Source: a bacterium (lineage in GTDB: Bacteria > Patescibacteriota > Patescibacteriia > Patescibacteriales > UBA12465). From it: a DNA stretch of 64,000 nt. The notes under the pieces are model-generated. The model had not been told where the DNA came from, made no database searches, and saw only the letters and a list, made by a program, of their open reading frames with translations. The stretch is taken from contig DAONDZ010000001.1 of the NCBI GenBank assembly GCA_035402825.1, positions 172,839 through 236,838 on the forward strand. Reading direction: 5' to 3'. Shown here piece after piece: positions 10,439 through 50,416 of the stretch. A program made the position numbers and the translations under genes. Numbering within the stretch: the first letter of the stretch is position 1; each line of letters begins with the position of its first letter.

Positions 10439-10999
10439 ATGGCGGATAATCTAGAAAAATTGACGGATGAAGAGCTGGCCGCTCTGGCATTATCTGATGA
10501 AGCGGCTTTTAAGCTGATTATTTCGCGGTATAAAGACCGCCTTTTTTATTACCTCAAACGCTTGACGCTTTTAAGCTCTGATGACCTGGATGATATTCTC
10601 CAGCAGGTGTTTATCAAAATATACTATAATCTTAACGGCTTTGACTCTAGTTTGAAATTTTCTTCTTGGGCCTATCGCATTGCCCACAATGAGGCCATGA
10701 ACTATTTCCGCAAGAACAAGGTGAAGACAGAAGATTTGGATAAAGCGGTTTTGGCCGATGACTTATCAGACTTGGAAGCCGATATGGATCGTCATTTGGA
10801 AAGTGAGACGGTTAAACTGGTTTTAGCTGAGTTGGATCATAAGTATCGCGAAGTACTATCTTTAAAATATTTTGCGGAAAAAAACTATCAAGAGATTTCT
10901 GATATTTTAGCTAAGCCAATGGGCACTGTGGCCACTTTAGTTAATCGAGCCAAAAAACAATTTCAAGATAAATATAAAATATATGCTGGAAAAAATTGA
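10439..10999 (+). CDS. ECF-type RNA polymerase sigma factor
   Basis: Region 2 (FSSWAYRIAHNEAMNYFRK) and region 4 HTH (YREVLSLKYFAEKNYQEISDILAKPMGTVATLVNRAKKQF). Confidence 0.85.
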   Translation: MADNLEKLTDEELAALALSDEAAFKLIISRYKDRLFYYLKRLTLLSSDDLDDILQQVFIKIYYNLNGFDSSLKFSSWAYRIAHNEAMNYFRKNKVKTEDLDKAVLADDLSDLEADMDRHLESETVKLVLAELDHKYREVLSLKYFAEKNYQEISDILAKPMGTVATLVNRAKKQFQDKYKIYAGKN

Positions 11000-36887: not shown

Positions 36888-36992
36888 GTGCTCTTCCGAG
36901 AGAGGATATATAAACAATTAAATTATTAATGAAACAAAGCAACGGACAATATTTTCGGCATTGATAAATTAATATTACTTTTTATAAAAAAA
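36888..36992 (+). repeat. Junction J1 (attL-like): degenerate core, element left arm and promoter
   Basis: gtgctct-tccgagagaggatatataaacaa...cattgataaattaatattactttttataa aligns with 38310-38416, including an identical 29-mer. Contains TTGATA, 16 nt spacer, TATAAA (36961-36988). Confidence 0.6.
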
Positions 36993-37118
36993 AGTCAATT
37001 AATTTAAAATTATAGTTTTATAAAATAATTATCTCTATTTTTAGAGATTTTCTCAGTTCTCGCTATTACTGAGTGGCATGTGTTATAATATGAATACTAA
37101 GTATTAATTTTGTTTTAT

Positions 37119-38216
37119 ATGAAATCTAAAAAAGCCTTTACTCTCATTGAACTCCTCGTTGTGATTGCCATCATTGGCATCCTCGCTACTATTTCCGTTA
37201 TTGCTTTAAACAATGCTCGCGCTAAATCGCGTGATGCTAAAAGAATTGGAGATATCAAGCAAGTCTCAACTGCTTTAGAGCTTTTCTTTAATGATAAAAA
37301 TCGTTATCCGACTGTGGAAGAATGGAATACCGGACAGATTTTTTCTACTACTACCGGCGCTACCTCGACTTATATGCAAATCATTCCAGCCGCCCCAACG
37401 CCTAACGATGGCTCTTGCACAACTGGACAAAACACTATTAGCTATACTCCAACACTCGATGGAGCTTCCTATACTGTCTCTTTTTGTTTAGGCAATACTA
37501 CTGGGGCCCTTGATTCCGGACCGAAGTGCTTGACTCCTGGAGGCGTTTTGGATGTAGATTGTTCAATCACTATTCCTGCCGCCCCTAGCTTTGCTTGTGG
37601 CACTGATAGTGTGACTTATGAAGGTGAAGTCTATCCTACTGTTTATATTGATAATACTGGTGGCCACAATTTGAGCCTTCCTGGCCAATGTTGGTTCGCC
37701 AAAAACCTCAATGTGGGAACTATGGTTGCTGGTGCTGCCAATCAAGCTGATAACGGTATTATAGAAAAGTATTGTTATAATGATAATACTTCCAATGAAT
37801 GTGCTACTGATGGCGGTTTGTATCAATGGGATGAAGCTATGCAATATTCCGTGGCTGAATCGGCTCAGGGCATTTGCCCTGACGGGTGGCATTTGCCGAC
37901 TGACGCAGAACAAAATACCTTGGATCAAAATTTAAATGACACCACTTGTAATGCTAATAGAACTGGAGATTGGGGTTGTGCTAACGCCGGTACTAAATTA
38001 CAGGACGGTGGGACTTCTGGACTTAATGTTCTCCGAGCCGGCACTCGTTATATCAATGCGGCGTTCTACGCTCGAGGGGTGTACACGATTTTTTGGTCAT
38101 CGTCTATTAGCGGTTCGGCCGCCTGGGGTCGGAATGTGACCACTAACAACGCTGCCGTTTACCGCAATTCTTATGACCGAACCACCGGCTATTCTGTGCG
38201 TTGTCTTCAGGACTAA
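37119..38216 (+). CDS. Type IV pilin-like protein with a C-terminal FISUMP-type domain (paralogue 1, not matched by the TR)
   Basis: KAFTLIELLVVIAIIGILA prepilin-type N-terminus. GGLYQWDEAMQY...GICPDGWHLPTDAEQNTL...YSVRCLQD. ATG 37119 preferred. Extended -10 TGtTATAAT at 37081-37089. Confidence 0.8.
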   Translation: MKSKKAFTLIELLVVIAIIGILATISVIALNNARAKSRDAKRIGDIKQVSTALELFFNDKNRYPTVEEWNTGQIFSTTTGATSTYMQIIPAAPTPNDGSCTTGQNTISYTPTLDGASYTVSFCLGNTTGALDSGPKCLTPGGVLDVDCSITIPAAPSFACGTDSVTYEGEVYPTVYIDNTGGHNLSLPGQCWFAKNLNVGTMVAGAANQADNGIIEKYCYNDNTSNECATDGGLYQWDEAMQYSVAESAQGICPDGWHLPTDAEQNTLDQNLNDTTCNANRTGDWGCANAGTKLQDGGTSGLNVLRAGTRYINAAFYARGVYTIFWSSSISGSAAWGRNVTTNNAAVYRNSYDRTTGYSVRCLQD

Positions 38217-38248
38217 TTCGACTATTTTGATCTTTTGGAAGGCCGAAT

Positions 38249-38267
38249 CACTAGAATATTTCTAGTG
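38249..38267 (+). terminator. Hairpin downstream of paralogue 1
   Basis: cactagaa / tat / ttctagtg. No strong T run, so terminator function is uncertain. Confidence 0.35.
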
Positions 38268-38273
38268 GTATAA

Positions 38274-38399
38274 ACAAAAAGAGAACTGGCACAGGCCAGT
38301 TCTCAGAAAGTACTCCTCCGAGAAGAAATATCGAAACATTTAAACGAAATTGTTGAGGAAATTAAACTTTGGTCGATGTTTTTGACATTGATAAATTAA
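38274..38399 (+). pseudogene. 3'-terminal remnant of a serine recombinase gene spanning junction J2
   Basis: Reads TKRELAQASSQKVLLREEISKHLNEIVEEIKLWSMFLTLIN*, compared with NKRELATASSPKVPLREKISKRFNEIIGEIKRWARFLDECPF* at the end of the 43659-45236 recombinase. Nothing upstream of it is recombinase-like. Confidence 0.65.
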
Positions 38400-38415
38400 T
38401 ATTACTTTTTATAAC
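38388..38415 (+). promoter_or_regulatory. Candidate promoter in the element left arm
   Basis: TTGATA, 16 nt spacer, TATAAC. Identical 29-mer at 36958-36986. A perfect TTGACA also sits at 38382-38387. Confidence 0.4.
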
Positions 38416-38489
38416 TATAAAAGTCAACAAAGTTAAAATCCTCTTTTGTTTATTCAAAAACCTAATTAAAATTTACTCCCACTATTGTC

Positions 38490-38499
38490 GGGGGGGGGG
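38490..38499 (+). repeat. G10 homopolymer tract in the promoter region of the DGR target gene
   Basis: tcGGGGGGGGGGcagaaaaTGtTATAAT. The tract ends 10 nt upstream of the -10 hexamer. Confidence 0.9.
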
Positions 38500-38506
38500 C
38501 AGAAAA

Positions 38507-38515
38507 TGTTATAAT
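38507..38515 (+). promoter_or_regulatory. Extended -10 element (TGtTATAAT) upstream of the DGR target gene
   Basis: The same TGtTATAAT is found upstream of paralogue 1 (37081-37089). Confidence 0.5.
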
Positions 38516-38551
38516 AAAACTAGATTAAGCTAATTATTAATTTATTTTAAT

Positions 38552-39697
38552 ATGTTAAAGAGAAAAGCCTTCACTCTAGTAGAACTATTGGTAGTAATAG
38601 CCATCATTGGCCTATTAGCTACTCTATCAGTCATTGCTCTAAATAGTGCTAGAGCTAAGTCTAGAGATGCTAAGAGAGTAGCTGATGTTAAACAGATCTC
38701 TACGGCTCTAGAGCTATTCTTCAATGATGCTGGCAGATACCCCACTGATCTAGAATGGGCTAGTGGCTCTTTAGAGTATAATGGTCAGACCTATCTCTCT
38801 ATTATCCCTTCTGCCCCTACCCCTGCTGATGGTAGCTGTGACTCTACTACCAACTCTTTTTCTTATACCCAGGATAATAGTGGTGAATCATATACTCTCA
38901 CCTTCTGTACTGGTGGAGTAGTGGGTTCTCTTACTGCTGGTGAGCTTTGTGCTACCCCGGGTGGGATGGCGGGGTGTGGGGGAGGCGGGGGCTGTATTCT
39001 TGATTGTACTAACAAAAACTGTGGTGATGATGGCTGCGGTGGTAGCTGTGGTGTTTGTACCGGCAATGATGTCTGTACTAATGGTACCTGTACTACTCCT
39101 CCTTTTGCTTGCGGAGACTCTGTCTCCTATGGCGGTGAATCATATCCCACGGTTCTGATCGGAGCCCAGTGTTGGTTTGCTAAGAATTTAAATGTTGGGG
39201 ATATGGTGACCGGGGTCACCCCTCAGTCAAACAACGCTATTGTAGAAAAATATTGTTATAATGATGACGCTTCTCATGAATGCGCCACCTACGGTGGCCT
39301 ATACCAATGGGATGAAGCTATGCAATATTCTGTCACCGAAGGGGCCCAAGGTATTTGTCCTGACGGTTGGCATATCCCAACTGACGCTGAACAAAATACT
39401 TTAGACCAAGGTTTAAATGATACTACTTGTAATGCTAATAGAATTTTAGCTTGGGACTGTGCCAATGCCGGTACCAAATTACAGGCTGGAGGTACTTCTC
39501 ATTTTGAAGGCCTCTTGGCCGGCTACCGCAATACCAATGGGTCGTTCAACGATCAAGGGACGTACGCGCTCTTCTGGTCATCTACTATTAGTGGACCGGA
39601 TGCCTGGGATCGGCTCTTGTACACTGGCTACGCGACCGTTCGCCGCGGTCATGATGACCGAGCCTACGGCTTTTCCGTGCGTTGCCTTCAGGACTAA
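38552..39697 (+). CDS. DGR variable (target) protein: type IV pilin-like N-terminus, Cys/Gly-rich linker, FISUMP-type C-terminal domain
   Basis: KAFTLVELLVVIAIIGLLA; CGGGGGCILDCTNKNCGDDGCGGSCGVCTGNDVCTNGTCT; GGLYQWDEAMQY...GFSVRCLQD. The last 178 nt form the VR. Confidence 0.9.
   Translation: MLKRKAFTLVELLVVIAIIGLLATLSVIALNSARAKSRDAKRVADVKQISTALELFFNDAGRYPTDLEWASGSLEYNGQTYLSIIPSAPTPADGSCDSTTNSFSYTQDNSGESYTLTFCTGGVVGSLTAGELCATPGGMAGCGGGGGCILDCTNKNCGDDGCGGSCGVCTGNDVCTNGTCTTPPFACGDSVSYGGESYPTVLIGAQCWFAKNLNVGDMVTGVTPQSNNAIVEKYCYNDDASHECATYGGLYQWDEAMQYSVTEGAQGICPDGWHIPTDAEQNTLDQGLNDTTCNANRILAWDCANAGTKLQAGGTSHFEGLLAGYRNTNGSFNDQGTYALFWSSTISGPDAWDRLLYTGYATVRRGHDDRAYGFSVRCLQD
39518..39695 (+). other. 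DGR variable region (VR)
   Basis: 178 nt aligned without gaps to TR 40277-40454. There are 16 mismatches, each opposite a TR adenine. Confidence 0.9.
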
Positions 39698-39700
39698 TTC

Positions 39701-39727
39701 GACTATTTTGACTATTTTGACTATTTT
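39701..39727 (+). repeat. Three tandem copies of gactatttt just after the target stop codon
   Basis: gactatttt gactatttt gactatttt. Paralogue 1 has one copy in the same place (taattcgactattttga is shared). Confidence 0.85.
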
Positions 39728-39752
39728 TCCGCCTCGTGTAAGCGAGGCGGAA
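39727..39752 (+). promoter_or_regulatory. GC-rich hairpin downstream of VR (candidate DGR target-recognition cruciform and/or terminator)
   Basis: ttccgcctcg / tgtaag / cgaggcggaa: a 10-bp perfect stem. With a t-g closing pair the loop becomes GTAA (GNRA-type). Confidence 0.55.
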
Positions 39753-39768
39753 TTAATTAAATTTTTCT

Positions 39769-40113
39769 ATGGCTACCTATGATAATTTGCCGGTGTATAA
39801 AGCCAGTTATGATTTACTGCTAGAAATATTCACTTTCAGTAAGAACATGGACAAAGAATATAAATATACCATTGGAGAAGATTTGAAAAAAGAAACCACG
39901 GCCATGATTACCAATATCTATCGCGCCAACTGCAACCAAAATAAAAAAGAGTTAATTCAAAGTGGTCGGGAAAATTTGGAAGTCATCAGATTATATTTAC
40001 GCCTAATTAAAGATTTGAAACAAATAAATTTGTTAAAATTTGTAAAGATTAATGAAATTATTGAGTCAATTTCCAAGCAATTAAATTTTTGGCAAAGTGC
40101 CATGAAATCATAA
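39769..40113 (+). CDS. avd: DGR accessory variability determinant (four-helix-bundle, 23S rRNA IVS protein family)
   Basis: 114 aa helical protein (PVYKASYDLLLEIFTFSKNMDKEYKYTIGEDLKKETTAMITNIYRAN...) sitting between target and TR as in canonical DGRs. Confidence 0.75.
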   Translation: MATYDNLPVYKASYDLLLEIFTFSKNMDKEYKYTIGEDLKKETTAMITNIYRANCNQNKKELIQSGRENLEVIRLYLRLIKDLKQINLLKFVKINEIIESISKQLNFWQSAMKS

Positions 40114-40276
40114 TGGGCCAGAGTCGTCATCGGTTACGGCCAGGGCGAGCGTGCCTCACTAGTCCAATAGTCCACTAAATTTTCTAAATTTAGTAATTGA
40201 CGGGGCAACCTGTCATTCTGCTGATTTTTTAGATAATATCAAATCAGCCGAAGAGGTTAGCGATTATTATAAAAGA

Positions 40277-40454
40277 GCCGGCAACCGCAATACCAATGGG
40301 TCGTTCAACAATCAAGGGACGAACGCGAACTTCTGGTCATCTACTATTAGTGGACCGGATGCCTGGAATCGGAACTTGAACACTGGCAACGCGACCGTTA
40401 ACCGCAATCATAATGACCGAGCCAACGGCTTTTCCGTGCGTTGCCTTCAGGACT
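40277..40454 (+). other. DGR template region (TR)
   Basis: Encodes AGNRNTNGSFNNQGTNANFWSSTISGPDAWNRNLNTGNATVNRNHNDRANGFSVRCLQD in the VR frame, with 15 AAY codons. Flanked by hairpins at 40178-40198, 40220-40248 and 40461-40487. Confidence 0.9.
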
Positions 40455-40508
40455 GGTCAAAAGGAGCCATATATCAATGGCTTCTTTTATTTTACTAAAA
40501 TATTTTTT

Positions 40509-41684
40509 ATGTCCGACAAACTTCTGGTTGACCTTTTTCAAGCCTATTACGACGCCCGACGCTATAAAAGAAATACAATGAGCGCTCTTAACTTTGAGAT
40601 TAATTTGGAGCAAAATATATTTGAATTGTATCGGGAGATAAAAAATAATACTTATCAAATTAGTCCCAGCCTAGCTTTTATTATCTTTGACCCGGTGCAG
40701 AGAGAAATTATCGCCTCGCCCTTTCGGGATCGAGTCGTGCATCACCTGGTTTTTAATTATATCAACCCCATTCTTGAAAATCTCTTTATTTCTGACAGTT
40801 ATAGCTGTCGCCAAGGCAAGGGTATTAGCTACGGAGTTAAGCGAGTCGCTCATTTTGTCCGCTCCAGTTCGCAAAATTATAGAGTTGATAATTATATTCT
40901 CAAATTGGATATTTCCGGCTATTTTATGAGTATTAACCAATCTGTTTTATATGATAAGGTAGAAAATTATTTATTAAGGCATAATGTTGATTACCCCTTT
41001 GACCTAAAATTAATTTCAGCCCTGCTAAAGAGAATTGTTTTTCACGATTATATTAAAGATTGCGTTATAAGAGGTGGAAAGACCAACTGGAAAAAATTAC
41101 CCCGCAACAAGAGTCTATTTTTCACGCCCCCGGGTTTTGGTTTGCCCATTGGCAATTTAACCTCGCAATTATTTAGTAATGTTTATTTAAATGATTTTGA
41201 CCATTATATTAAGCGGACTTTGAAATTTAAGTATTATGGTCGTTATGTCGATGACTTAATCATTATTGACGGTAGTAAAGAAAGGCTCCAAATAGCTATG
41301 GCCAAAATTGCGGAATATTTATCAACGAATCTAAACTTAAAAATTCACCCCAGAAAAATCTATTTACAGCCCTATGCCAAAGGCGTTAATTTTTTAGGCG
41401 GGATTATTAAACCCCACAGAATTTATGTCCGCCACCGGACTAAAACCAGTTTTTATCGCTCAGCGACTAAGGCTAATAATATTCTGAAGAATGTAGATGT
41501 AGAAAGGAAAGCCCTCAGGAAAATTTTATCCAGTTTTAATTCCTATTTAGGGGTGTTTGGGCAATATCAGACCTATAATTTACGCCGTAAAATATTGGAC
41601 AACAAGCTATCCTCGGATTTTTGGCGTTATTTTAGACTTGGGAAAGGTGAGTCAAGATATAGAAAAATTGTTTTAAGAAAATAA
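40509..41684 (+). CDS. DGR reverse transcriptase
   Basis: LPIGNLTSQLFSNVYLNDFD (the IGxxxSQ motif typical of DGR RTs) and YGRYVDDLIII (YxDD). ATG 40509 chosen because the longer track ORF (40413) starts inside the TR. Confidence 0.9.
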   Translation: MSDKLLVDLFQAYYDARRYKRNTMSALNFEINLEQNIFELYREIKNNTYQISPSLAFIIFDPVQREIIASPFRDRVVHHLVFNYINPILENLFISDSYSCRQGKGISYGVKRVAHFVRSSSQNYRVDNYILKLDISGYFMSINQSVLYDKVENYLLRHNVDYPFDLKLISALLKRIVFHDYIKDCVIRGGKTNWKKLPRNKSLFFTPPGFGLPIGNLTSQLFSNVYLNDFDHYIKRTLKFKYYGRYVDDLIIIDGSKERLQIAMAKIAEYLSTNLNLKIHPRKIYLQPYAKGVNFLGGIIKPHRIYVRHRTKTSFYRSATKANNILKNVDVERKALRKILSSFNSYLGVFGQYQTYNLRRKILDNKLSSDFWRYFRLGKGESRYRKIVLRK

Positions 41685-41690
41685 TTATAC

Positions 41691-42306
41691 TTATCCCCAG
41701 CAAAATGCTAGCAAATTTAAATATTTAAAAAAGTTTTTCAAATTCCCAATAAATTCACCCCTTAACCTTACCGCTAATTTATGCTATGATACATTCAGAC
41801 TTAATCAATAAAAATATATAACCTCGGGACCCATTGTTGAATAGATGTCGCTCGCATGAAACGCAAAATAAAAAAATAAAACTCATAAAATAATATCCCC
41901 TGTAAATTAGCAAAGTCTTTCTTTGCCAATTGAAACTAATTAACCAGCATTTGTCCGTGCTCGGTTTTTTTGTTTTGGCAAAGACTATTAAATTTCGTCG
42001 TCGCCTGTTTAGATAGCGAAACAGGTTAGTTGATTTCTTTGGTGTAAACATAAGCGTGTAGTTTGGTTTTAGCCTATTAGTGGTACTTGCCCGTCGCTAA
42101 TGGCTAGTTCTGTTATTAATTTCTCATTTTTGACCGTCCCCCAAGCATTGTTTTTTAGTTTTTTTTCGGCGAGGCTTGTCCGCTCGCCGAAAAAATAAAA
42201 ACAAGCTGGGGGCGGTAAATGAGATTTTAGACAAAAGTAGTGTCCGTTTGTCGTGTGCCTCTATTAGACTTGACTATAGGCACACTTAACGCCGTTATTA
42301 AACTCT
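41691..42306 (+). other. Conserved structured non-coding region upstream of Rep (copy 1): promoter, terminator-like hairpin, nested stem-loops, candidate replication origin
   Basis: Aligns with 47040-47682. TTAACC, 17 nt, TATGAT at 41762-41790. Hairpin plus T run at 41944-41976. Nested structure 42122-42224 (tctcattt...aaatgaga enclosing ttttttcggcgag/ctcgccgaaaaaa). Hairpin gtgtgcct...aggcacac at 42253-42285. Confidence 0.55.
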
Positions 42307-43098
42307 ATGGAAATTAAACCACGAGTTTATCGGCAGAAGCTGGTAGAGTCGGGTGATTATGTGGAAATATATGATTATGAGAATTTCATTAAAATTAATC
42401 AAAAGAGAAAACGAAGAAGAAATACAACCAAGAGACCTAAATTTATCGGCCCACCTACTTATTTAGATGTGCTTTGTCGAGAAACAAAAAATGGTTTTTC
42501 TCTAAGGCGAACTCGGTCAAATATTGTTAGATTGGTAAATTCTAACCCCGATTTAAAAGTATTTATTACTCTCACCTTTGATAGCCATAAATTCGGGGAT
42601 AAGCCGTTTACTGATTTTAAGGAATGTAATTTGATATTTTCTAATTTCATTAAACGACTAAAAAGGAAATATCCCGATTTAAAATATTTGGCCGTGCCTG
42701 AATTTCAGAGCGACTATTATCACCGCACCAATATTAGAAAAGAATTTGGCGGTAATATTCACTATCATTTATTGTCTAATTTGCCGTTTATTGAAAATAC
42801 TCAATTAGAAAAAATCTGGGGCTACGGATTTATTAAAATCAATAATATCCGACAGGTGTCTGCTGTCGGTCCGTATGTGGCTAAATATGTCGGCAAAGAA
42901 TTGTTTGACGGTCGTTTAAATGGGAAAAAGAAATTGTTTTATTCTCGCACTCTTAATCGCTCTAAAATCATTATTACCTACTCAAAAATAAAAGAATATT
43001 TAAACAACTTAAAATCACCCCTCAAGCTTTTGCACGAGACAACTTACAAGTCCGAGTATCTCAGCAGAGCTCGCTATCGGCTCTATAAACAAGGATAG
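42307..43098 (+). CDS. HUH-superfamily rolling-circle replication initiator (two-tyrosine type), copy 1
   Basis: Motif 1 VFITLTF, motif 2 NIHYHLLS (HUH), motif 3 GPYVAKYVGKE (Y-x3-Y). Confidence 0.7.
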   Translation: MEIKPRVYRQKLVESGDYVEIYDYENFIKINQKRKRRRNTTKRPKFIGPPTYLDVLCRETKNGFSLRRTRSNIVRLVNSNPDLKVFITLTFDSHKFGDKPFTDFKECNLIFSNFIKRLKRKYPDLKYLAVPEFQSDYYHRTNIRKEFGGNIHYHLLSNLPFIENTQLEKIWGYGFIKINNIRQVSAVGPYVAKYVGKELFDGRLNGKKKLFYSRTLNRSKIIITYSKIKEYLNNLKSPLKLLHETTYKSEYLSRARYRLYKQG

Positions 43099-43138
43099 CA
43101 AAACTGATTTTGTTAATCATACGTTCATCTAAAATATA

Positions 43139-43288
43139 ATGACTATTGAGGCTCTTAAAAAATCAATAGTAGGTCGTGGGCGACAGTATTCCGATGACGA
43201 ATTGGAGACAATTAGACGCGACTTATACCAACTGGCTCATCTGCTAGTCGAATATTATTTTAATCAGCAAAAAATATTAATAAAATAA
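43139..43288 (+). CDS. Small helical protein (49 aa), YSDDELE-RRDLY family
   Basis: MTIEALKKSIVGRGRQYSDDELETIRRDLYQLAHLLVEYYFNQQKILIK. Conserved in E_C (48518-48673). Confidence 0.5.
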   Translation: MTIEALKKSIVGRGRQYSDDELETIRRDLYQLAHLLVEYYFNQQKILIK

Positions 43289-43298
43289 ATAAAAAATT

Positions 43299-43454
43299 AT
43301 GATGAGTATAAGTAAATTAAGAAAATTGTTAAGCGAAAAGGCAAATGAATACAGCGAAGAAGAACTAGAAGAAATGCGGCGAGATATTTATACATTTGCT
43401 AATCTAGCCTTTGATATTTATAAAGAGAATCCCAGGATATTAGATAAATATTAA
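43299..43454 (+). CDS. Small helical protein (51 aa), paralogue of the preceding ORF
   Basis: MMSISKLRKLLSEKANEYSEEELEEMRRDIYTFANLAFDIYKENPRILDKY shares the YS-EELE-x-RRD-Y-x-A-L core. Confidence 0.45.
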   Translation: MMSISKLRKLLSEKANEYSEEELEEMRRDIYTFANLAFDIYKENPRILDKY

Positions 43455-43461
43455 AGCGATA

Positions 43462-43658
43462 TTGTAAAAATAAAAATATATGTTATTATCCTTAATGGAC
43501 ATAACTTATAATAGCGGAAAGCTACTATTTTCTTACATCATAATGACGGCAGATAAGTCGTTTTGATATAAAGGGAGCAGTGGCTGTTTCAACAAGGCTT
43601 TCCGCTAAGTTGTGTCCAACAGTTCACTGCTCTCTTTTTATTATTAACTTTTAACCCT
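43462..43658 (+). promoter_or_regulatory. Promoter plus about 165-nt structured leader of the recombinase gene (copy 1)
   Basis: TTGTAA, 16 nt, TGtTATTAT (43462-43489). P1 ggacataactta/taagttgtgtcc; P2 agcggaaagc/gctttccgct; long-range gagcagtg (43575-82)/cactgctc (43625-32) followed by tctcttttta. Confidence 0.5.
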
Positions 43659-45236
43659 ATGCAAAAAGGAATAATCTATTACCGAGTTTCAACCGAAGAT
43701 CAGGCTCAAACTGGTGTTAGTTTGGAGCAACAGAAAAACGCTTGTCTTGATTACGCTCAAAAGAATGATATTGAAATACTAAAATTATTTCACGATGACG
43801 GAGTGTCTGCTAAAACTACCAAAAGAGCAGGACTTCAAGAACTATTGGCGTATTGTAAAAAGAATCATAAAGAGATTGATTGTTTGATAGTCTATAAAAT
43901 TGACCGGCTATCTCGAAATGTAAAAGACTACGCCACGCTATTAATGGCTTTGGGCGAATTTAACATTAAATTCATATCTACCACTGAAACCGTTAACGAA
44001 ACTTCTAGCGGAAAATTAATTGGCACAATTATGGCCTCGTTCGCTCAATTTGATAATGATGTTAGGAGCGAAAGAGTGTCGGTCTGTATGCTCGAAAAAG
44101 CCAAGCAGGGAATCTGGTGCTTCAAGGCCCCATTCGGTTATCTAAACAGCCGTGATGAGCAAAATAGAGCCATTATAACCATTGATAAGAGTAGGGCCGA
44201 GATTATTAAAATGGCCTTTGAAAAGTTTGCTACAGGATTATATAAAATGGAGGAAATACGGATAATGATGATTAAGGCCGGATTTAAAACCTGGCGAGAT
44301 AAAGAAATAAGCATCCAAAGTGTATTTAGAATTTTGATTGATAAGTTTTATATTGGAGTTATGACGATTAAAGGTCAAGAATATCAGGGGAGCCACGAGG
44401 TTTTTATTAATGAAAACACTTTTTATAAATGTCAAAAATTAATCCGCACTTCTAAACGAGGCGACAATATTGCTTTTAAACGCACTAATGAAATGTTCCC
44501 TCTCAGAAATTTTATTTTATGCCCCTCCTGTGGTCGTCCTTTTACTGCTTGCTTGTCCCGCAACTCCCGGGGTAATTATTACCCGTATTATAGATGTTAT
44601 AACAAAAACTGCCGAGGTTATAAATCAATATCTAAAGATAAATTGGAAAATAAGTTCAGCGATTATCTTAAAAGTATAGCGCCTGATCCTTATTTTGCCA
44701 AAGATTTAAGATTAATAGTTATTGAGGAATGGGAGAAAAAAATTAAAAACTATAAAGGCAGTTTGGTTGATGCCAAAAATCAGTTAGAAGTATTGGAATT
44801 AGAAAAGTCCAAATTGATAGAAATGAAGAAAAAGGACCTGCTTGACGACAATGATTTTAAAGAAGAAATGTCTAAAGTGAAGATTAAAATTGCTGAGAAA
44901 CAGTCTACCCCAGCTGAGAATATTCCTAATAATTTTGACATTAAGAAACAATCCAAAAAAGTTTTTGATATCATTCCCGACCTTGATAAATTTTATAATA
45001 GTCTTGGTTATTATGACAAACTTAAATTTCAGAGTTTGATTTTTCCCGAAAAGGTCTATTTTGATTTTTCAGAAAGTCGAACAGCTAAAATGTCGCTAAT
45101 ATTACAGAATAAAAGAGAACTGGCGACTGCCAGTTCCCCGAAAGTACCCCTCCGAGAGAAGATATCTAAACGATTTAACGAAATTATTGGGGAAATTAAG
45201 CGGTGGGCGAGGTTTTTGGACGAATGCCCATTTTGA
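43659..45236 (+). CDS. Large serine recombinase (integrase), copy 1
   Basis: Resolvase-type catalytic domain (IYYRVSTEDQ...VYKIDRLSRN), recombinase domain, zinc ribbon (CPSCGRPFTAC...YYRCYNKNC), coiled coil. Confidence 0.85.
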   Translation: MQKGIIYYRVSTEDQAQTGVSLEQQKNACLDYAQKNDIEILKLFHDDGVSAKTTKRAGLQELLAYCKKNHKEIDCLIVYKIDRLSRNVKDYATLLMALGEFNIKFISTTETVNETSSGKLIGTIMASFAQFDNDVRSERVSVCMLEKAKQGIWCFKAPFGYLNSRDEQNRAIITIDKSRAEIIKMAFEKFATGLYKMEEIRIMMIKAGFKTWRDKEISIQSVFRILIDKFYIGVMTIKGQEYQGSHEVFINENTFYKCQKLIRTSKRGDNIAFKRTNEMFPLRNFILCPSCGRPFTACLSRNSRGNYYPYYRCYNKNCRGYKSISKDKLENKFSDYLKSIAPDPYFAKDLRLIVIEEWEKKIKNYKGSLVDAKNQLEVLELEKSKLIEMKKKDLLDDNDFKEEMSKVKIKIAEKQSTPAENIPNNFDIKKQSKKVFDIIPDLDKFYNSLGYYDKLKFQSLIFPEKVYFDFSESRTAKMSLILQNKRELATASSPKVPLREKISKRFNEIIGEIKRWARFLDECPF

Positions 45237-45240
45237 TAAT
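45111..45240 (+). repeat. Junction J3 (attP-like hybrid between units E_B and E_C)
   Basis: aaaagagaactggcgactgccagttccccgaaa-gtacccc-tccgagagaagatatctaaacga.... The left half matches 50311-50350 and the right half matches 38317-38399. Confidence 0.65.
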
Positions 45241-45250
45241 TTTTTGGTGC

Positions 45251-45279
45251 TTGACTTTTCCTCAGAAAAGTGGTATTAT
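45251..45279 (+). promoter_or_regulatory. Candidate cargo promoter of unit E_C
   Basis: TTGACT, 17 nt, TATTAT. Confidence 0.5.
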
Positions 45280-45366
45280 TATATATTCAACAAATTAGAC
45301 TTACTGTTTAATTTTAGCTATAATAAAGGAATAATACAAGAGTAAATTTATACTAAAATTAACAAT

Positions 45367-45552
45367 ATGTTAAAAAATCAAGTGAATTCCAACGAAAATA
45401 AAGTTAACCTGATAAATGATATATATAATCAGGCTTTAAACGACATTGAAAAAATTAAAAAGGAAAGGGATAAGAAAATTAAGAATGTTCTGAAAGAAAT
45501 AGATAAAAAGCACGTAGCCAAGGCTCTCAGGGATATAAAAAATTCAAAATAA
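45367..45552 (+). CDS. Hypothetical K/N-rich small protein (61 aa)
   Basis: ORF only, with coiled-coil-like composition. Confidence 0.35.
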   Translation: MLKNQVNSNENKVNLINDIYNQALNDIEKIKKERDKKIKNVLKEIDKKHVAKALRDIKNSK

Positions 45553-45583
45553 TTTTTAATATTAAAAAATAACAATCAATTAT

Positions 45584-46969
45584 ATGAATATGGAAAATCA
45601 AGTCAAGGAATCCCCATTAGAAAAAGCTAAACGGCTAAAAGCCGAAAAAGAAAGCAAAGATCAGGCCAAAATCGAGGCTGAATCTTCCGCTAAAGCTGAA
45701 AAATTGGGGGCTCTTAATAGCCAAAAACAAGGACTAGAAAATCAGCTCGATGAAATTAATTCTAAAATTGAAGCCTCGAGGGGCGAAGCTCATGAAACTA
45801 GGGACACCATGCAAGAGGCTGGCCTAAATAAAGACGAGGAATTTAAAGGTGAATATAATTCCACCATTTCTGAAGTGGCTGGAAATTTAAATGAATTGAG
45901 AAATGAAAGAAATAGAATTAAGGCCGAGTTAGAGCAAATTAATTCTAATATTGAAAATTTTGAAGTCAACGAAGCTATTTCGGAGGGCAAAGAAGCTACT
46001 CAGGAAGCGGTTGAAACTGTTAATCAGGAAAACGAGCAGGCTATAACCCAAGTAGAAAATTATCCCGGTGCTGAAGCTGGGGATATTAAGGCTTCTCAGG
46101 AAATAGTGTCCGAAATAAACCAGGAGGTTAATCAGGTTGTTAAAAATTCTGAGAATAATGTTAAAGAAGTATCCGGTGAAAAAAAAGAGGAAAAAAAGGA
46201 AAAAACATTTGATTTTGATGATATTGCCAAAGAAATCACGTCTGACGTCGCCCATCTTTTAAATGAAGAAGATAAAAGACTGAAGATAGTAAAAGAAAAT
46301 ATTTTAAAAATGCCTAAAGCGAGCAAGGGAGATTATGAAAAAATTTTCGCGGAGGAAGCTGTTAAATTTGAAAGACGCCTCTATACCGTTAACAATTTAT
46401 TAGCTAAGTTAGAATATCCGATTAATAGACTTGCATATCAAGGGAAGTATGACCAAGATCGTGATAAAAATTTGAAGAGGCAGGAAGAATTGGTTAATTA
46501 CATTAATAATATCGCCAACACTAGCCCGGCTAGCCAAAAAGAAACGGAAATATTCAATATTTTGAGAGAAAAAATTGCAAAGGCATCAGACAAGGAGACT
46601 GCGGGAGAAAAAAAAGAAAAAACATTCGAAGAGGTTAGACAGGAAGTGGCGGTAGAAGTCGGTAATCTTGTCAACGCAGAAAGAAATAAATTAAGCGACG
46701 CAGAACTAAGAGTGCGTAATTTTCAAGGAGGCAAGGAAGAATATGAAAAATTAAGACATGATATTTATGGCATTCAATGGGATGCTCGCTACCTCGTAGA
46801 TATTGATGAAAAATTGGAACCTTTAAAAATTATTGCTACACAATCTGGGAAGTTGAAAGAATTTGACAAGATGCATCAGGATCAAACTATTTCTGATTAT
46901 AAAAATTTCAATAAAGTAGCTGGAGAATTGATAGAAGATTTGGACAAAAAGATGTCAAAAACATCCTAG
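45584..46969 (+). CDS. Acidic coiled-coil protein (461 aa) with an internal duplication
   Basis: E/K/N/Q-rich N-terminal half. Two related modules each begin GEKKE(E)K..KTF(D/E) (nt about 46176 and 46604). Confidence 0.6.
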   Translation: MNMENQVKESPLEKAKRLKAEKESKDQAKIEAESSAKAEKLGALNSQKQGLENQLDEINSKIEASRGEAHETRDTMQEAGLNKDEEFKGEYNSTISEVAGNLNELRNERNRIKAELEQINSNIENFEVNEAISEGKEATQEAVETVNQENEQAITQVENYPGAEAGDIKASQEIVSEINQEVNQVVKNSENNVKEVSGEKKEEKKEKTFDFDDIAKEITSDVAHLLNEEDKRLKIVKENILKMPKASKGDYEKIFAEEAVKFERRLYTVNNLLAKLEYPINRLAYQGKYDQDRDKNLKRQEELVNYINNIANTSPASQKETEIFNILREKIAKASDKETAGEKKEKTFEEVRQEVAVEVGNLVNAERNKLSDAELRVRNFQGGKEEYEKLRHDIYGIQWDARYLVDIDEKLEPLKIIATQSGKLKEFDKMHQDQTISDYKNFNKVAGELIEDLDKKMSKTS

Positions 46970-46999
46970 ATAAATTTTACAGGATTATAAAAAAACTAC

Positions 47000-47030
47000 A
47001 AAAACGCTTTTAAAAGGGCGTTTTTGTGTT
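47000..47030 (+). terminator. Intrinsic terminator after the E_C cargo
   Basis: aaaaacgc / ttttaaaagg / gcgttttt followed by gtgttt. Confidence 0.5.
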
Positions 47031-47039
47031 TAATAATAT

Positions 47040-47682
47040 TTATCCACAGCGAAATATTAGCAAAACTAATTATTTTAAAAAATTGTTAAAATCACTCGCA
47101 AAACCAGCCCTTAACCCGCCCTCAAAAATATGGTATAATATAGTTGGACTAAAATAAAAATAAACTAACGCTGGGAACCACGGTTGAAACGGTATAAAGA
47201 TTATTGTATGCGCTTCTAAATAAAATAAAACTCAAAAAATATTATCCCTTGCAAAAATTAGCAAAGTCCAGTCTTTGCCAATTTAAACTTTAAACCAACA
47301 TTAGGCCGATGTTCGGTTTTTTTGTTTTGGTAAAGAGTAGTCGTCGGTTAGCAGTCTTGCCGTTGCTAGCCGACGACCATGCCTGTTTAGTCTCTCGTCT
47401 TTGGCTAAGCAGGTTGGTAATTCCTTTTAGGTGAACATAAGCGTATGATCTTGATTTAGCCCATTAGCGGCGTTTGCCCCGTTGCTAGTGGCTTGTTCTG
47501 TTCTTTTAATTTCTCATTATTGACGCCGCCGGACTGGATTTTTTCTTTTTTCGGCGAGTTGTCTGCGAGCCGAAAAAGAAAAACCAGCCGAGGCGGTAAA
47601 TGAGATTTTAGACAGAATAGTTCCCAGTGTGCCGTCGTCATATTAGACTTGACTATAGGCACACTTAACGCCGTGATAACTT
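47040..47682 (+). other. Conserved structured non-coding region upstream of Rep (copy 2)
   Basis: TTAACC, 17 nt, TATAAT (47111-47139, with TG). Hairpin plus T run at 47295-47329. Nested structure 47512-47608. Hairpin gtgtgcc...ggcacac at 47627-47664 with the same loop, tattagacttgactat. Confidence 0.55.
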
Positions 47683-48468
47683 ATGGAGATTAAACCACGA
47701 GTTTATCGGCAAAAGCTGATAGAGTCGGGTGATTATGTAGAAATATATGACTTTGAGAATTTCATTAAAATCAATCAAAAAAGAAAAAAGAGAAGAAATA
47801 AAAATAAAATTAAAAAAGATACTAATGACGAGGATAAAGAAAACGAGCAAAACTTAAAAAGCCATTTTTCATTGAGGCGGAGCCGATCAAATATTATTCG
47901 GTTGGTAAATTCCAACCCCGATTTAAAAGTATTTATCACCTTAACTTTTGATAGCCATAAATTTGGGGATAAGCCATTTACTGATTTTAAGGAATGTAAT
48001 TTGATATTTTCTAATTTCATTAAGCGGTTAAAACGGAAATACCCTGAATTAAAATATCTGGCCGTTCCCGAATTTCAAAGCGATTATTATCACCGCACTA
48101 ACATCAGAAAAGAATTTGGCGGTAATATTCACTATCATTTGCTGTCTAATTTGCCATTTATTCAGAGCGAAGAATTAGAGAAAATTTGGGGCTACGGATT
48201 CATTAAAATCAATAATATCCGACAGGTGTCTGCTGTCGGGCCGTATGTCGCCAAATATATCGGCAAAGAATTATTTGACGGTCGCTTAAATGGAAAGAAA
48301 AAATTGTTTTATTCGAGGACTCTTAATCGCTCTAAAATTGTTATTACTTATTCAAGAATAAAAGAATATCTCAACAACTTAAAATCACCTCTCCAGCTTT
48401 TGCACGAGACAACTTATCAGGCCGAATATGTCGGCAGAGTTCGCTATCGGCTCTATAAACAAAGGTAG
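47683..48468 (+). CDS. HUH rolling-circle replication initiator, copy 2
   Basis: Same three motifs as copy 1 (VFITLTF, NIHYHLLS, GPYVAKYIGKE). Differs mainly in the basic, low-complexity residues 30-65. Confidence 0.7.
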   Translation: MEIKPRVYRQKLIESGDYVEIYDFENFIKINQKRKKRRNKNKIKKDTNDEDKENEQNLKSHFSLRRSRSNIIRLVNSNPDLKVFITLTFDSHKFGDKPFTDFKECNLIFSNFIKRLKRKYPELKYLAVPEFQSDYYHRTNIRKEFGGNIHYHLLSNLPFIQSEELEKIWGYGFIKINNIRQVSAVGPYVAKYIGKELFDGRLNGKKKLFYSRTLNRSKIVITYSRIKEYLNNLKSPLQLLHETTYQAEYVGRVRYRLYKQR

Positions 48469-48517
48469 CCTAGTTAATAAACTAAAGTTGAATACCGACC
48501 CATTCAATATTCAACTC

Positions 48518-48673
48518 ATGATTAGTTTGACAGTCCTTAAAAAATTAATAGTAAGCCGTGGCCGACAGTATTCCGATGACGAATTGGAGACAATCAGGCG
48601 CGACTTATACCAACTGGCTCATCTTTCGTTCAAGTATTATCTTAATCAGCAAAAAAAGCTATTGTCAAAATAA
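48518..48673 (+). CDS. Small helical protein, YSDDELE-RRDLY family (E_C copy)
   Basis: MISLTVLKKLIVSRGRQYSDDELETIRRDLYQLAHLSFKYYLNQQKKLLSK. The track ORF 48428 starts inside Rep; ATG 48518 is preferred. Confidence 0.45.
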   Translation: MISLTVLKKLIVSRGRQYSDDELETIRRDLYQLAHLSFKYYLNQQKKLLSK

Positions 48674-48852
48674 AAATATATGCTAATATCCTTAATGGAC
48701 ACAATTAAATTAAGGCATAGCAACTATTCTCAAATCATAATGACGGCAGATGAGTCGTTTTGATATAAAGGGAGCAGTGGCTGTTTCAGTTATGCCTTGC
48801 ATAATTGTGTCCGACAGTTCACTGCTCTCTTTTTATTATTAACTTTAAATTT
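48662..48852 (+). promoter_or_regulatory. Promoter plus structured leader of the recombinase gene (copy 2)
   Basis: TTGTCA...TAATAT. P1 ggacacaatta/taattgtgtcc; P2 aaggcata/tatgcctt (a different sequence from copy 1, but still paired); same conserved loop and same cactgctc-tctcttttt end. Confidence 0.5.
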
Positions 48853-50382
48853 ATGGCCAAGCAAAAAGGTATTGTTTATTACCGAGTTTCTACCGAAGAT
48901 CAAGCTCAAACTGGCATTAGCTTAGAACAGCAGAAAAATGCCTGCCTTGATTATGCTCAAAAGAATGAAATTGAAATCTTGAAATTATTTCACGATGACG
49001 GCGTGTCCGCCAAAACTACCAAAAGGGCAGGCCTTCAAGAGTTGCTGGCGTATTGTAAAAAGAATTACAAAGAGATTGATTGTCTGATAGTTTATAAAAT
49101 TGACCGCTTGTCCCGAAATGTAAAAGACTACGCTACCTTGCTTATGGTTCTTGGCGAATTAAACATTAAATTCATTTCCACCACCGAAACAGTCAACGAT
49201 ACATCGAGCGGAAAGCTTATTGGCACGATTATGGCCTCATTTGCTCAATTTGATAATGATGTGCGAAGTGAAAGGGTGTCGGTTTGTATGCTGGAAAAGG
49301 CCAAGCAGGGGATTTGGTGCTTCAAAGCCCCATTTGGTTATCTAAACAGTCGAGATGGGCAAAATAGAGCCATTATAACCGTTGATAAGGAGCGTATGCC
49401 CATTATAAAAATGGCCTTTGAAAAGTTTGCCACGGGTTTATACAAAATGGAGGAAATTAGGCAGATGATGATTAAGGCCGGATTTAAAACATGGCGAGAT
49501 AAGGAAATAAGTATTCAAAGCGTATTCAGGATTTTAATTGATAAGTTCTATATTGGCGTTATGACGATTAAGGGCCAAGAATATCAAGGCAGTCATGAGA
49601 TATTTATTAATGAAAATACTTTTTATAAATGCCAAAAATTAATCCGTACTTCCAAGCGAGGCGACAATATTTCCTTTAAACGCACTAACGAATTATTCCC
49701 CTTGCGAAATTTTATTTTATGTCCCTCTTGCGGTCGGCCTTTCACCGCCTGCTTATCAAAAAATCACCAAGGCAAGCTCTACCCCTATTATATGTGCTAT
49801 AACAAACTCTGCCGAGGCTATAAGTCCATATCCAAAGATAAGCTGGAAAATCAGTTCAGCGATTATTTGAAAAATATATCGCCTGATCCTGATTTTGCTA
49901 AAGCTTATCAAGTAATTGTGGTCGAGGAATGGGAAAAAGGCTTGAAAAACTATCAAAGCAGTCTGGCTAATATAAAAAATGAATTAGATCAGTTGGAAAT
50001 AGAAAAATCTAAATTAATTGAAATGAAGAAAAAAGAGCTTTTAGATGACGAGGATTTTAAAGAGGAAATGTATAGAGTAAAAGTTAAAATAGCTGATAAA
50101 CAAAATTTTCCAGCCGACAATATCGCCGATGATTTTGATGTTAAAAAAGAATCTAAAAAAATTTTTACCATTATCCCTAATTTGGATAAATTCTATAATG
50201 GATTAAATTATTACGAAAAAATTAAACTACAAGGTTTGATTTTTCCTGAAAAGCCGGTGTTTGATTTTTCCGAAAATCGAACCCACAAAATCTCGCTAAT
50301 ATTACAAAACAAAAGAGAGCTGGCAAGTGCCAGTTCTCCGAAAGTACCCCCAAGAGGAATCGAACCTCTATGGTCAGCTTAG
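48853..50382 (+). CDS. Large serine recombinase (integrase), copy 2; its 3' end runs antisense into tRNA-Arg
   Basis: MAKQKGIVYYRVSTEDQ..., collinear with copy 1 up to ...SSPKVP, then PRGIEPLWSA* encoded opposite the tRNA. ATG 48853 preferred. Confidence 0.85.
   Translation: MAKQKGIVYYRVSTEDQAQTGISLEQQKNACLDYAQKNEIEILKLFHDDGVSAKTTKRAGLQELLAYCKKNYKEIDCLIVYKIDRLSRNVKDYATLLMVLGELNIKFISTTETVNDTSSGKLIGTIMASFAQFDNDVRSERVSVCMLEKAKQGIWCFKAPFGYLNSRDGQNRAIITVDKERMPIIKMAFEKFATGLYKMEEIRQMMIKAGFKTWRDKEISIQSVFRILIDKFYIGVMTIKGQEYQGSHEIFINENTFYKCQKLIRTSKRGDNISFKRTNELFPLRNFILCPSCGRPFTACLSKNHQGKLYPYYMCYNKLCRGYKSISKDKLENQFSDYLKNISPDPDFAKAYQVIVVEEWEKGLKNYQSSLANIKNELDQLEIEKSKLIEMKKKELLDDEDFKEEMYRVKVKIADKQNFPADNIADDFDVKKESKKIFTIIPNLDKFYNGLNYYEKIKLQGLIFPEKPVFDFSENRTHKISLILQNKRELASASSPKVPPRGIEPLWSA
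50311..50350 (+). repeat. Junction J4 (attR-like): element right arm plus core, fused to the tRNA-Arg acceptor stem
   Basis: aaaagagagctggcaagtgccagttctccgaaa-gtacccc, then caagaggaatcgaacc (the tRNA T arm, antisense). Confidence 0.65.
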
Positions 50383-50416
50383 AAGGCTGGTGTTCTATCC
50401 ATTGAACTATGGGGGC
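50345..50416 (-). tRNA. tRNA-Arg (anticodon TCT)
   Basis: Reverse complement gccccca-ta-gttc...ccagc-ctTCTaa-gctga...agagg-ttcgatt-cctct-tgggggt-a. Position 72 gives a G1-U72 pair, and this end coincides with the island junction. Confidence 0.85.

Follow-up and report, generated by a model that had tools for sequence, protein, structure and literature searches.

The window analysed here is a 64,000-nucleotide stretch of a Patescibacteria contig (DAONDZ010000001.1), and the subject of this report is an array of three units within it, one of which carries a diversity-generating retroelement (DGR). The array, 36888-50343, is probably a stack of three site-specific integrative units, and the two larger of these, E_B and E_C, are best read as diverged, intact members of a cargo-carrying family of elements in Patescibacteria. 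The units, E_A (36888-38309, 1422 bp), E_B (38310-45143, 6834 bp) and E_C (45144-50343, 5200 bp), are direct repeats that lie against the 3' end of a tRNA-Arg(TCT) gene (50344-50416, minus strand; identified by ARAGORN and Rfam), which is the integration target and whose 3' end is at the last junction. The units, and the coding, DGR, left-arm and backbone features given below, are on the plus strand. The region has a G+C content of 33-38%, versus 40-46% in its surroundings.

The limits of the units were fixed by two kinds of comparison as follows: self-BLASTN of the 34-54 kb part of the window pairs 41682-43289 with 47031-48674 (77% nucleotide identity, E = 0) and 43453-45150 with 48655-50350 (81%, E = 0), and it ties the unit ends together by short matches of 38222-38384 to 45056-45218 (75%) and of 38226-38316 to 50260-50350 (71%); alignment of the junctions places crossover cores (GTA or GTG) at 36888, 38310, 45144 and 50344. 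E_B and E_C have in common a left arm of 84-90 nt and a backbone of 3.3-3.5 kb that is 77-81% identical in nucleotides, and they differ only in a variable slot, which spans 38400-41681 in E_B and 45237-47030 in E_C. A first-pass annotation of this DNA, made from its letters, had proposed that the homology breakpoints of the two units coincide, and they do, with its coordinates right to within about 10 nt. The shared backbone that it described (structured region, Rep, small open reading frames (ORFs), leader and recombinase) is there and starts on a shared motif at 41691 and 47040; the right arm has the same hairpin and crossover in both units; and the difference is indeed confined to the slot, with a four-part DGR in E_B and proteins of 61 and 461 aa in E_C. 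The annotation had missed the tRNA-Arg(TCT) gene at the array end, the coding nature of the left arm and the decayed unit E_A.

The right arm common to three of the four junctions ends in a hairpin, GAGAACTGGC-N4-GCCAGTTCTC, followed by CCGAAAGTA, and the left arm common to three of the four starts with C(T/C)CCTCCGAGAG. At the right end of E_B (45114-45146) the minus-strand hairpin is GGGGAACTGGC-AGTC-GCCAGTTCTCT, followed by CCGAAAGTA and the crossover, and its counterparts lie at 38281-38312 and 50315-50346. These alignments define junctions of the attL/attR type, the common sequence stopping at GTA next to the 3' end of the tRNA, and about 50 loci have this geometry at other tRNAs. In minus-strand orientation the right-arm hairpin is followed by TTTTGTTTTG and forms an intrinsic terminator for tRNA-Arg, so the element restores both the 3' end of the tRNA gene and its terminator, which is the usual layout of tRNA-integrating elements. 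Rfam matches to mir-6, mir-606 and Plastid-ycf2 fell on the hairpins and on the antisense strand of the tRNA and were set aside as chance; only tRNAs scored above threshold. Independent assemblies of the window population (L002-L006 and L184-L189; such L numbers denote the contigs and loci compared with the window) are broken where the pilin-like gene begins, at the junction between E_A and E_B, and at the tRNA. Because they break at the repeats of the array, short-read metagenome-assembled genomes (MAGs) will often split or lose such elements.

The E_B backbone begins with a non-coding head (41682-42306) that contains a long hairpin (42122-42224, roughly 100 nt; z of the DNA fold, -8.4 for E_B and -6.4 for E_C) and, at the 3' base of this hairpin and upstream of Rep, the invariant box CGGTAAATGAGATTTTAGAC (42213-42232). 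The DnaA-box-like motif TTATCC[A/C]CA, present also in L027, stands 9 nt inside the cargo/backbone boundary in both units, as TTATCCCCA (41691-41699) in E_B and as TTATCCACA (47040-47048) in E_C. A minus-strand ORF in the head (41779-42051) is probably not a gene, as it has a low-complexity translation, conservation at the DNA level and large palindromes. The head is followed by a rolling-circle Rep of the HUH class (42307-43098; PF23343, 1.1e-15; motifs FITLTF, HYH and YVAKY), which is of the G2P/ORF2 type that goes with an origin-like region. Its motifs (FxTLT, HYH, YxxKY) are invariant over 20 homologues, and its named homologues are mostly labelled Patescibacteria. Two paralogous small ORFs of 49 and 51 aa (43139-43454), which at a guess encode a recombination directionality factor or a regulator, precede a recombinase-gene leader (43462-43655) with a promoter-like site (43462-43489) and a long hairpin (43566-43641; z = -3.7 and -4.8) that is followed by a T-run; this hairpin retains 35 pairs over nine elements, 8 of them with compensatory changes. 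The last gene encodes a large serine recombinase (43659-45236; Resolvase 1e-35, Recombinase 2.1e-11, Zn_ribbon 1e-08). The E_C backbone (47031-50343) repeats this order with its own hairpin and invariant box (47594), Rep (47683-48468), an ORF at 48428-48673, the leader hairpin (48763-48836) and a serine recombinase (48853-50382), and the catalytic YYRVSTEDQ, with the nucleophilic serine, is present in both recombinase copies.

The two backbone copies are 85% identical in protein, with dN/dS at 0.15 (Rep) and 0.08 (recombinase) and dS at 0.67 and 1.26, respectively. The former mean that both backbones have been under purifying selection since they diverged, and the latter that E_B and E_C are independent arrivals and not products of recent duplication. 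They are direct adjacent repeats of similar length, but could they be an in-place tandem segmental duplication whose inner part was later replaced? This is scarcely credible: synonymous divergence of 0.67-1.26 is found with intact ORFs, both units have closer kin elsewhere (E_B is 87-91% identical in nucleotides to L087, L190 and L192, and the E_C cargo is found in L024), and in L087 a unit of the E_B type stands alone beside a tRNA.

The slot of E_B holds a complete DGR of standard type. The target gene (38552-39697) encodes a protein with an N_methyl (prepilin-type) N-terminus and a Fib_succ_major domain (Pfam, 8.6e-31 and 8.8e-07), and its variable region (VR; 39518-39695) ends 2 nt before the stop codon. 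Directly after the VR there are three tandem copies of GACTATTTT (39701-39727), and 33 nt downstream of the VR is an 8-bp, GC-rich hairpin, CCGCCTCG-TGTAAG-CGAGGCGG (39729-39750), which we take to be a putative DGR target-site hairpin. The gene for the accessory protein Avd (39769-40113; bAvd 4.8e-11, above the gathering score) is separated from the template region (TR; 40277-40454, 178 nt with 47 adenines) by a structured spacer (40117-40274) that has a sub-threshold match to the RT-7 RNA family (RF03028; 43.3 bits, below the gathering score of 116.8, E 1.5e-7). The reverse transcriptase (RT) gene occupies 40413-41684 (RVT_1 2.9e-15; PHROG 1423, 4.3e-94), with its start at 40509 in other annotations. 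TR and VR differ at 16 of 178 positions, and all 16 are adenines in the TR; the two diverge right after ...CAGGACT, and an IMH/IMH* (initiation of mutagenic homing) pair could not be defined. Homologues of the RT number in the thousands, several of the named ones coming from Patescibacteria, and RTs that are 45-58% identical to it sit in the same target-avd-TR-RT cassette on other contigs. Outside the array, at 23747-24883 (minus strand), there is a third pilin-like paralogue with Fib_succ_major, which has 38% identity to the DGR target, so the target family is also an ordinary chromosomal family in this genome.

E_A is a deletion derivative of such a DGR unit, from which avd, TR, RT, Rep and most of the recombinase gene are gone. 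It contains a degenerate left arm, a Fib_succ_major pilin-like gene (37110-38216) and a right arm (38222-38309), and it follows E_B to just past the stop codon of the target gene and then continues with 88 nt of the recombinase 3' end. The switch point lies inside a shared CTATTTTGA (38222; in E_B at 39703/39712 and 45056), and the 9-mer GACTATTTT that is repeated at 39701-39727 recurs in the 3' region of the recombinase gene (45056) as the microhomology of the E_A deletion. The VR-like end of the pilin-like gene (38037-38214) differs from the TR at 43 positions, 23 of which are not adenines, and the hairpin downstream of it has been lost, so it is an orphan; for these reasons we rejected it as a second live target of the E_B DGR.

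The cargo of E_C (45367-46969) comprises two ORFs, one of 61 aa and one (45584-46969) for an acidic coiled-coil protein of 461 aa, with promoter-like sites at 45251-45279 and 45296-45324. Neither ORF has a Pfam or PHROG match, and both recur in L024, at 64% and 71% identity. A relationship of the 461-aa protein to the other slot proteins of 400-550 aa was sought with jackhmmer, which returned only the L024 orthologue.

What delimits the slot on its left is the 3' end of the recombinase gene itself. The left arm of E_B (38310-38399) consists of the crossover GTA, an att half-site (P') and a stretch that codes, stop codon included, for the 29 C-terminal residues of a recombinase (VLLREEISKHLNEIVEEIKLWSMFLTLIN), and it scores 58 bits with a profile hidden Markov model (HMM) of recombinase tails; that of E_C (45144-45236) likewise has an att half-site and the tail VPLREKISKRFNEIIGEIKRWARFLDECPF. 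The E_B recombinase ORF reads through the junction at 45144 and stops 90 nt inside the E_C left arm, from which its last 30 codons (45144-45233) come, and the E_C recombinase ORF runs 39 nt into tRNA-Arg on the opposite strand and so acquires the tail PPRGIEPLWSA. The first-pass annotation was right that the two units share a left arm, but its outward promoter was rejected: the shared part stops at the recombinase stop codon, and the TTGATA-N16-TATAAC-like sequence that follows the left arm in E_A, E_B and L008, all of them units with pilin cargo, is not present in E_C and failed a promoter scan. The tail peptide VVLKSEISQNFNEIIGEIEKWAEIL and its variants occur in at least 15 other loci (L008, L010-L015, L017, L019, L022-L025, L027 and L037), always on the Rep strand, upstream of Rep and ending at a stop codon. 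The differences among these tails number 554, 350 and 688 at codon positions 1, 2 and 3, the third being the commonest. Delimiting left ends by tRNA-derived direct repeats worked only in L011, L019 and L023, and was replaced by the recombinase-tail HMM; in L023 the tail marker falls together with a perfect direct repeat, 47 nt long, of the tRNA-proximal junction, so the tail is valid as a left-end marker. In copies adjacent to a tRNA the protein closes with ...PRGIEPL..., translated from the strand opposite the T-arm of the tRNA, as it does in 118 of 118 close homologues in the protein collection. The long tail would be made only from a circle or from an internal copy of an array, and because the recombinase ORF spans attP, integration-dependent control is predicted.

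The same backbone is found elsewhere with other contents. The order Rep, recombinase, antisense tRNA is present in about 50 of 80 genome loci, at tRNAs for Glu, Ala, Trp, Gln, Asn, Ser, Asp and Arg. In other genomes, units whose RT is 89-95% identical to that of E_B stand at a tRNA-Arg (L087), a tRNA-Glu(CTC) (L008) and a tRNA-Ala (L192). L087, a metagenome contig (RT 91%, Rep 95% and recombinase 89% identical), has its DGR unit directly against an identical tRNA-Arg(TCT) gene with no E_C in between. L008 (MAG RA.bin4) has its own left arm at 6047, a native terminator just outside, and a block collinear with 39291-43294 of the window at 87% nucleotide identity. L192, at tRNA-Ala(TGC), is 91% identical in nucleotides to the window over its TR-RT-Rep part, and immediately beyond the stop codon of Rep this drops to 68%; its recombinase matches the type found in L030 at 95% identity and that of the window at about 60%, so the integrase module is also exchangeable.

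Where the backbone is at least 76% identical in nucleotides, the slot holds the E_C cargo (L024), a 238-aa protein with a TrmB-type regulator (L027), four ORFs without known function (L190), or a radical SAM/SPASM enzyme with a 296-aa protein (L009). In tail-delimited units with Rep proteins that are 57-68% identical, it holds D12 and Eco57I-type methyltransferases, Abi_2, DUF4145 with HNH, PIN with sigma-70 region 4, a Macro domain protein, an acyltransferase, an amino-acid ABC transporter and secreted repeat proteins; in all, about 15 other loci have methylases, Abi proteins, transporters or regulators there. The left edge of the slot is the recombinase-tail segment in at least 15 loci, and its right edge corresponds to 41682-41807 of the window in E_C, L190, L027 and L009. 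That the DGR is a swappable passenger, as had been suggested from E_B and E_C, is thus upheld by backbone homologues elsewhere whose cargo varies within the same slot limits. In several loci, cargo-only units are found between two or three tail markers (L011:928-4651, L019:1298-4386, L010:2757-6772, L015:184-2716 and L023:3462-5209; those of L011 hold a SpoU-like methylase and a 643-aa protein). These loci are stacks of decayed units like E_A, and stacks and remnants are therefore common. The JBAYNC01 MAG has two units without Zot (the pI ATPase of filamentous phages) whose Rep genes are near-identical and whose recombinases differ, one at tRNA-Trp and the other at tRNA-Ala.

How widely is this backbone linked to DGRs? 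Metagenomes were scanned with a profile of the RT, and the 80 nearest relatives (45-91% identity) were examined. At least 1.5 kb of sequence downstream of the RT is available in 47 of the 80 related DGR loci, and the Rep-recombinase backbone is present in one of the 47 (L087). This agrees with the report that the DGRs of the Candidate Phyla Radiation (CPR), which make up clade 2, are almost entirely cellular-encoded (Roux et al., PMC8144416). The low count, together with that classification and with the pilin-like paralogue at 23747-24883 elsewhere in the chromosome, could be taken to mean that the E_B DGR is an ordinary chromosomal cassette enclosed by elements that integrated on both sides of it, as 46 of the 47 informative relatives have no backbone. 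We consider this very improbable, because the target gene is preceded by a recombinase-tail left arm and the RT stop codon is where the backbone begins, and because it is contradicted by the collinear block in L008 (at another tRNA and with its own left arm), in L087 and in L192. What the one locus in 47 does mean is that the capture of a DGR by this backbone was recent and narrow. Among the relatives without the backbone, DGR cassettes lie 90-470 nt from a tRNA gene in L147, L149 (tRNA-Phe), L152 (tRNA-Val) and L090 (tRNA-Ser), the tRNA 3' end facing the RT in L147, L149 and L152, and in L120, L135 and L156 related DGRs adjoin a serine or tyrosine recombinase gene; such DGRs might be remnants of other integrative carriers.

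Several observations weigh against a stack of mobile, cargo-carrying units. The link between DGR and backbone is a narrow one, consisting of four sequences with RTs at least 89% identical and the single backbone among 47 loci. A look-up of the flanking genes in the assemblies gave no circular form, no empty attB and no population variant, the contigs either agreeing with the window or breaking at repeats. No recombination directionality factor was identified, and none of the 118 close recombinase homologues in the protein collection has the attP-type tail of a circular form. Reuse of attR as a target is not known for large serine recombinases, so the formation of a tandem stack is hard to account for. 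The VR is identical in six contigs of the window population, which come from different samples and are consensus assemblies, so there is no sign of ongoing diversification; in L008 the VR and TR (7209-7390 and 7972-8151) differ at 38 positions, 13 of them not adenines, and this DGR copy may therefore be inactive, its VR perhaps being no longer refreshed. The left ends of the distant loci rest on a marker of 25-28 residues, and some of the genes counted as cargo there could be older island DNA.

Where did the backbone come from? Relatives with Rep proteins about 45% identical have Rep, recombinase and tRNA in the same order and, upstream, a module of about 6 kb that encodes a Zot/pI ATPase (PF05707, 2.3e-9), an 82-aa protein like the CTXphi coat protein Cep, a protein of about 600 aa and, in some relatives, a LexA-like repressor. 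Fourteen of 14 relatives in IMG/VR are Zot-positive with this layout, and some relatives use a phage-type tyrosine integrase. Over the origin-like region, the window units share 72-89% of their nucleotides with Zot-positive relatives whose Rep proteins are only about 40% identical; for example, the head of the E_B backbone matches Zot-positive L060 at 82% over 167 nt. CPR inoviruses with serine or tyrosine recombinases and tRNA att sites have been published (PMC6813254), and by homology the E_B and E_C backbone appears to be the replication-integration module of such CPR filamentous-phage-like prophages. The structural genes are a different matter: in the window clade (Rep 57-95% identical, about 25 loci) there is no Zot, nor any Pfam Zot match among the cargo ORFs; the 64-kb window has none beyond a chance-level match of 57 residues at 56968-57138; and there are no coat or adsorption genes in the E_B slot, which holds only the DGR, while the E_C ORFs are hydrophilic and coiled-coil.

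Because relatives with a full structural module exist, E_B and E_C might be decaying filamentous prophages that have lost it, with a slot made by chance deletions and insertions and a DGR that is not functional mobile cargo. E_A shows that deletion happens in the array, and no evidence of current mobility was found. We nevertheless regard this as unlikely, since the slot has the same left and right edges in many elements whose cargo is unrelated, strong purifying selection acts on the backbones, the unit of DGR plus backbone stands at three tRNAs with two recombinase modules, and the roughly 25 loci of the clade are all Zot-less with Rep and recombinase intact wherever the contig covers them.

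A second explanation of the missing genes is that the Zot-less units are satellites like RS1 that excise, replicate with a Rep of their own and are packaged and exported by a co-resident helper filamentous phage, so that virions borrowed from the helper spread the DGR as single-stranded DNA. Zot and coat genes are missing from the units, which yet keep an intact Rep and recombinase under purifying selection; their hairpin and box are kept at 72-89% nucleotide identity with Zot-positive relatives in spite of Rep identity of about 40%; Zot is absent throughout the Rep clade at 57-95% identity, and its absence is therefore a stable state; and at least three MAGs contain both Zot-less and Zot-positive elements, namely CAZYNT01 (L009, L014, L042), CAZCQW01 (L019, L021, L038) and JBAYNC01 (L007, L027, L030, L060). 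On the other hand, the 64-kb window has no helper, the shared box may be the Rep nick site and then be expected from common descent, IMG/VR and the assemblies have no packaged or circular copies, and co-residence in MAGs could reflect binning or the general abundance of the elements. We hold the satellite explanation to be possible but somewhat doubtful.

Filamentous-phage-like prophages can themselves be associated with a DGR, and an independent second case, beside E_B, is provided by L088 and L031. L088 (7428-11167) overlaps L031 at 99.9%, and together they give a Zot-positive prophage of about 13.3 kb at tRNA-Leu(TAG) with a tyrosine integrase. Both belong to one population (Falkowbacteria MAG ELA379), and the prophage has genes for a LexA-like repressor, coat protein, Zot, Rep and the tyrosine integrase. 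Its DGR, enclosed by direct repeats that copy 23 bp of the tRNA 3' end, consists of a 589-aa target (PG_binding, InlB-repeat and Fib_succ_major), avd, TR and RT; 16 of the 17 TR/VR mismatches are at adenines, and the L088 RT has a TGA at a conserved Trp codon (10580-10582). As far as literature searches show, this would be the first DGR reported in a filamentous phage.

If E_B and E_C are integrative units of the kind proposed, their working can be pictured as follows. Their backbone has an origin-like hairpin, an HUH Rep, small ORFs and a large serine recombinase and no morphogenesis or coat module, a content that suggests elements able to replicate and integrate by themselves. The serine recombinase would integrate the unit at the 3' end of a tRNA gene and, on excision, would release a circle, from which rolling-circle replication may start at the hairpin and box. 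Its ORF, lying over attP, would end in a tail of about 28 residues in a circle or tandem array and in a shorter antisense-tRNA tail beside the tRNA, a switch that could have a regulatory role, and the right arm would give the tRNA back its 3' end and supply a terminator. The place for accessory genes would be the interval from the stop codon of the recombinase to the origin-like region; in E_B, Avd and the RT would copy TR RNA with adenine-specific errors into the VR of the prepilin-type surface protein. Newcomers presumably insert beside the tRNA, so that older units are displaced outward and then decay, and E_A would have lost everything from avd through the recombinase by deletion at the 9-nt microhomology. 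Candidate routes of transfer from cell to cell are helper filamentous phages and natural transformation. We advance only tentatively the broader idea that Patescibacteria harbour stable, Zot-less, phage-derived shuttles with a tail-switching recombinase and helper export, whose cargo, DGRs included, is left behind in tRNA islands when the backbones decay. If it is true, such shuttles seeded some of the CPR DGR clade now called 'cellular', and filamentous phages themselves can carry DGRs, as in L088/L031.

The CPR is the richest cellular reservoir of DGRs, and these are classed as cellular-encoded (PMC8144416); given that classification, what is new here is the type of carrier, and the DGR itself is ordinary. 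E_B offers a concrete vehicle for CPR DGRs, a 6.8-kb element that carries the whole cassette to at least three tRNA sites, and the decay path seen in E_A leaves a diversified gene behind in the chromosome. The family is a cargo-carrying, tycheposon-like one in tiny, streamlined genomes, and its recombinase ORF lying over attP is a testable feature. Searches of the literature turned up neither DGRs in inoviruses nor an account of this family of elements. The first-pass annotation had called the context undescribed for DGRs, which is correct for the type of carrier and too broad otherwise, as DGRs on integrative mobile elements are known in general.

DGRs are known on phages, prophages, plasmids and islands, among them Bordetella BPP-1, a Legionella genomic island and Bacteroides conjugative elements. 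E_B has the same cassette as these (a target with a C-terminal VR, Avd, TR and RT), the same adenine specificity and a place on a mobile element, and it differs in that its carrier is a 6.8-kb Rep-plus-serine-recombinase unit without transfer or virion genes and its target has a prepilin-type N-terminus. In mycobacteriophages, as Broussard and colleagues reportedly described in 2013, attP lies inside a gene and integration changes the C-terminus of the product. E_B and E_C would be alike in that an att site inside an ORF gives circular and integrated forms with different C-termini, and different in that the ORF is that of the recombinase itself; the likeness to a degradation tag or to regulation is one of analogy. 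RS1, which lies beside CTXphi in Vibrio cholerae, has replication and integration functions without morphogenesis genes, stands with its relatives in tandem arrays at a single chromosomal site and shares cis sequences with its helper, and the present units resemble it in all of these respects, the filamentous phage being the one with which their cis sequences are shared. RS1 integrates through the host XerCD at dif, has no variable cargo slot and has a proven dependence on its helper, whereas E_B and E_C have their own serine recombinase acting at a tRNA and a cargo slot, and helper dependence is for them a conjecture.

The published CPR inoviruses (PMC6813254) are like these units in the Rep family (PF23343, ORF2/G2P), in having recombinases at tRNAs and in the origin-like box. 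E_B, E_C and the clade with Rep at 57-95% differ from them in having no Zot, coat or adsorption genes and in carrying cargo in that position; as they have no pI/Zot, they would be missed by pI-based detection of inoviruses. The tycheposons of Prochlorococcus (Hackl et al., bioRxiv 10.1101/2020.12.28.424599) also combine small integration and replication modules with swappable cargo at tRNA sites, and they show the same repeated integration at one site that displaces older elements inward, the same degenerate remnants and partial tRNAs, and the same swaps of integrase modules. They belong to another phylum and have other hallmark genes (a primase, helicase or polymerase, versus the HUH Rep here), and most use a lineage-specific tyrosine recombinase, versus the large serine recombinase here; filamentous-phage ancestry is a feature of the present, putatively mobile family. 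The E_B/E_C unit works like a tycheposon, and possibly like an RS1 satellite, and is a member of neither family.

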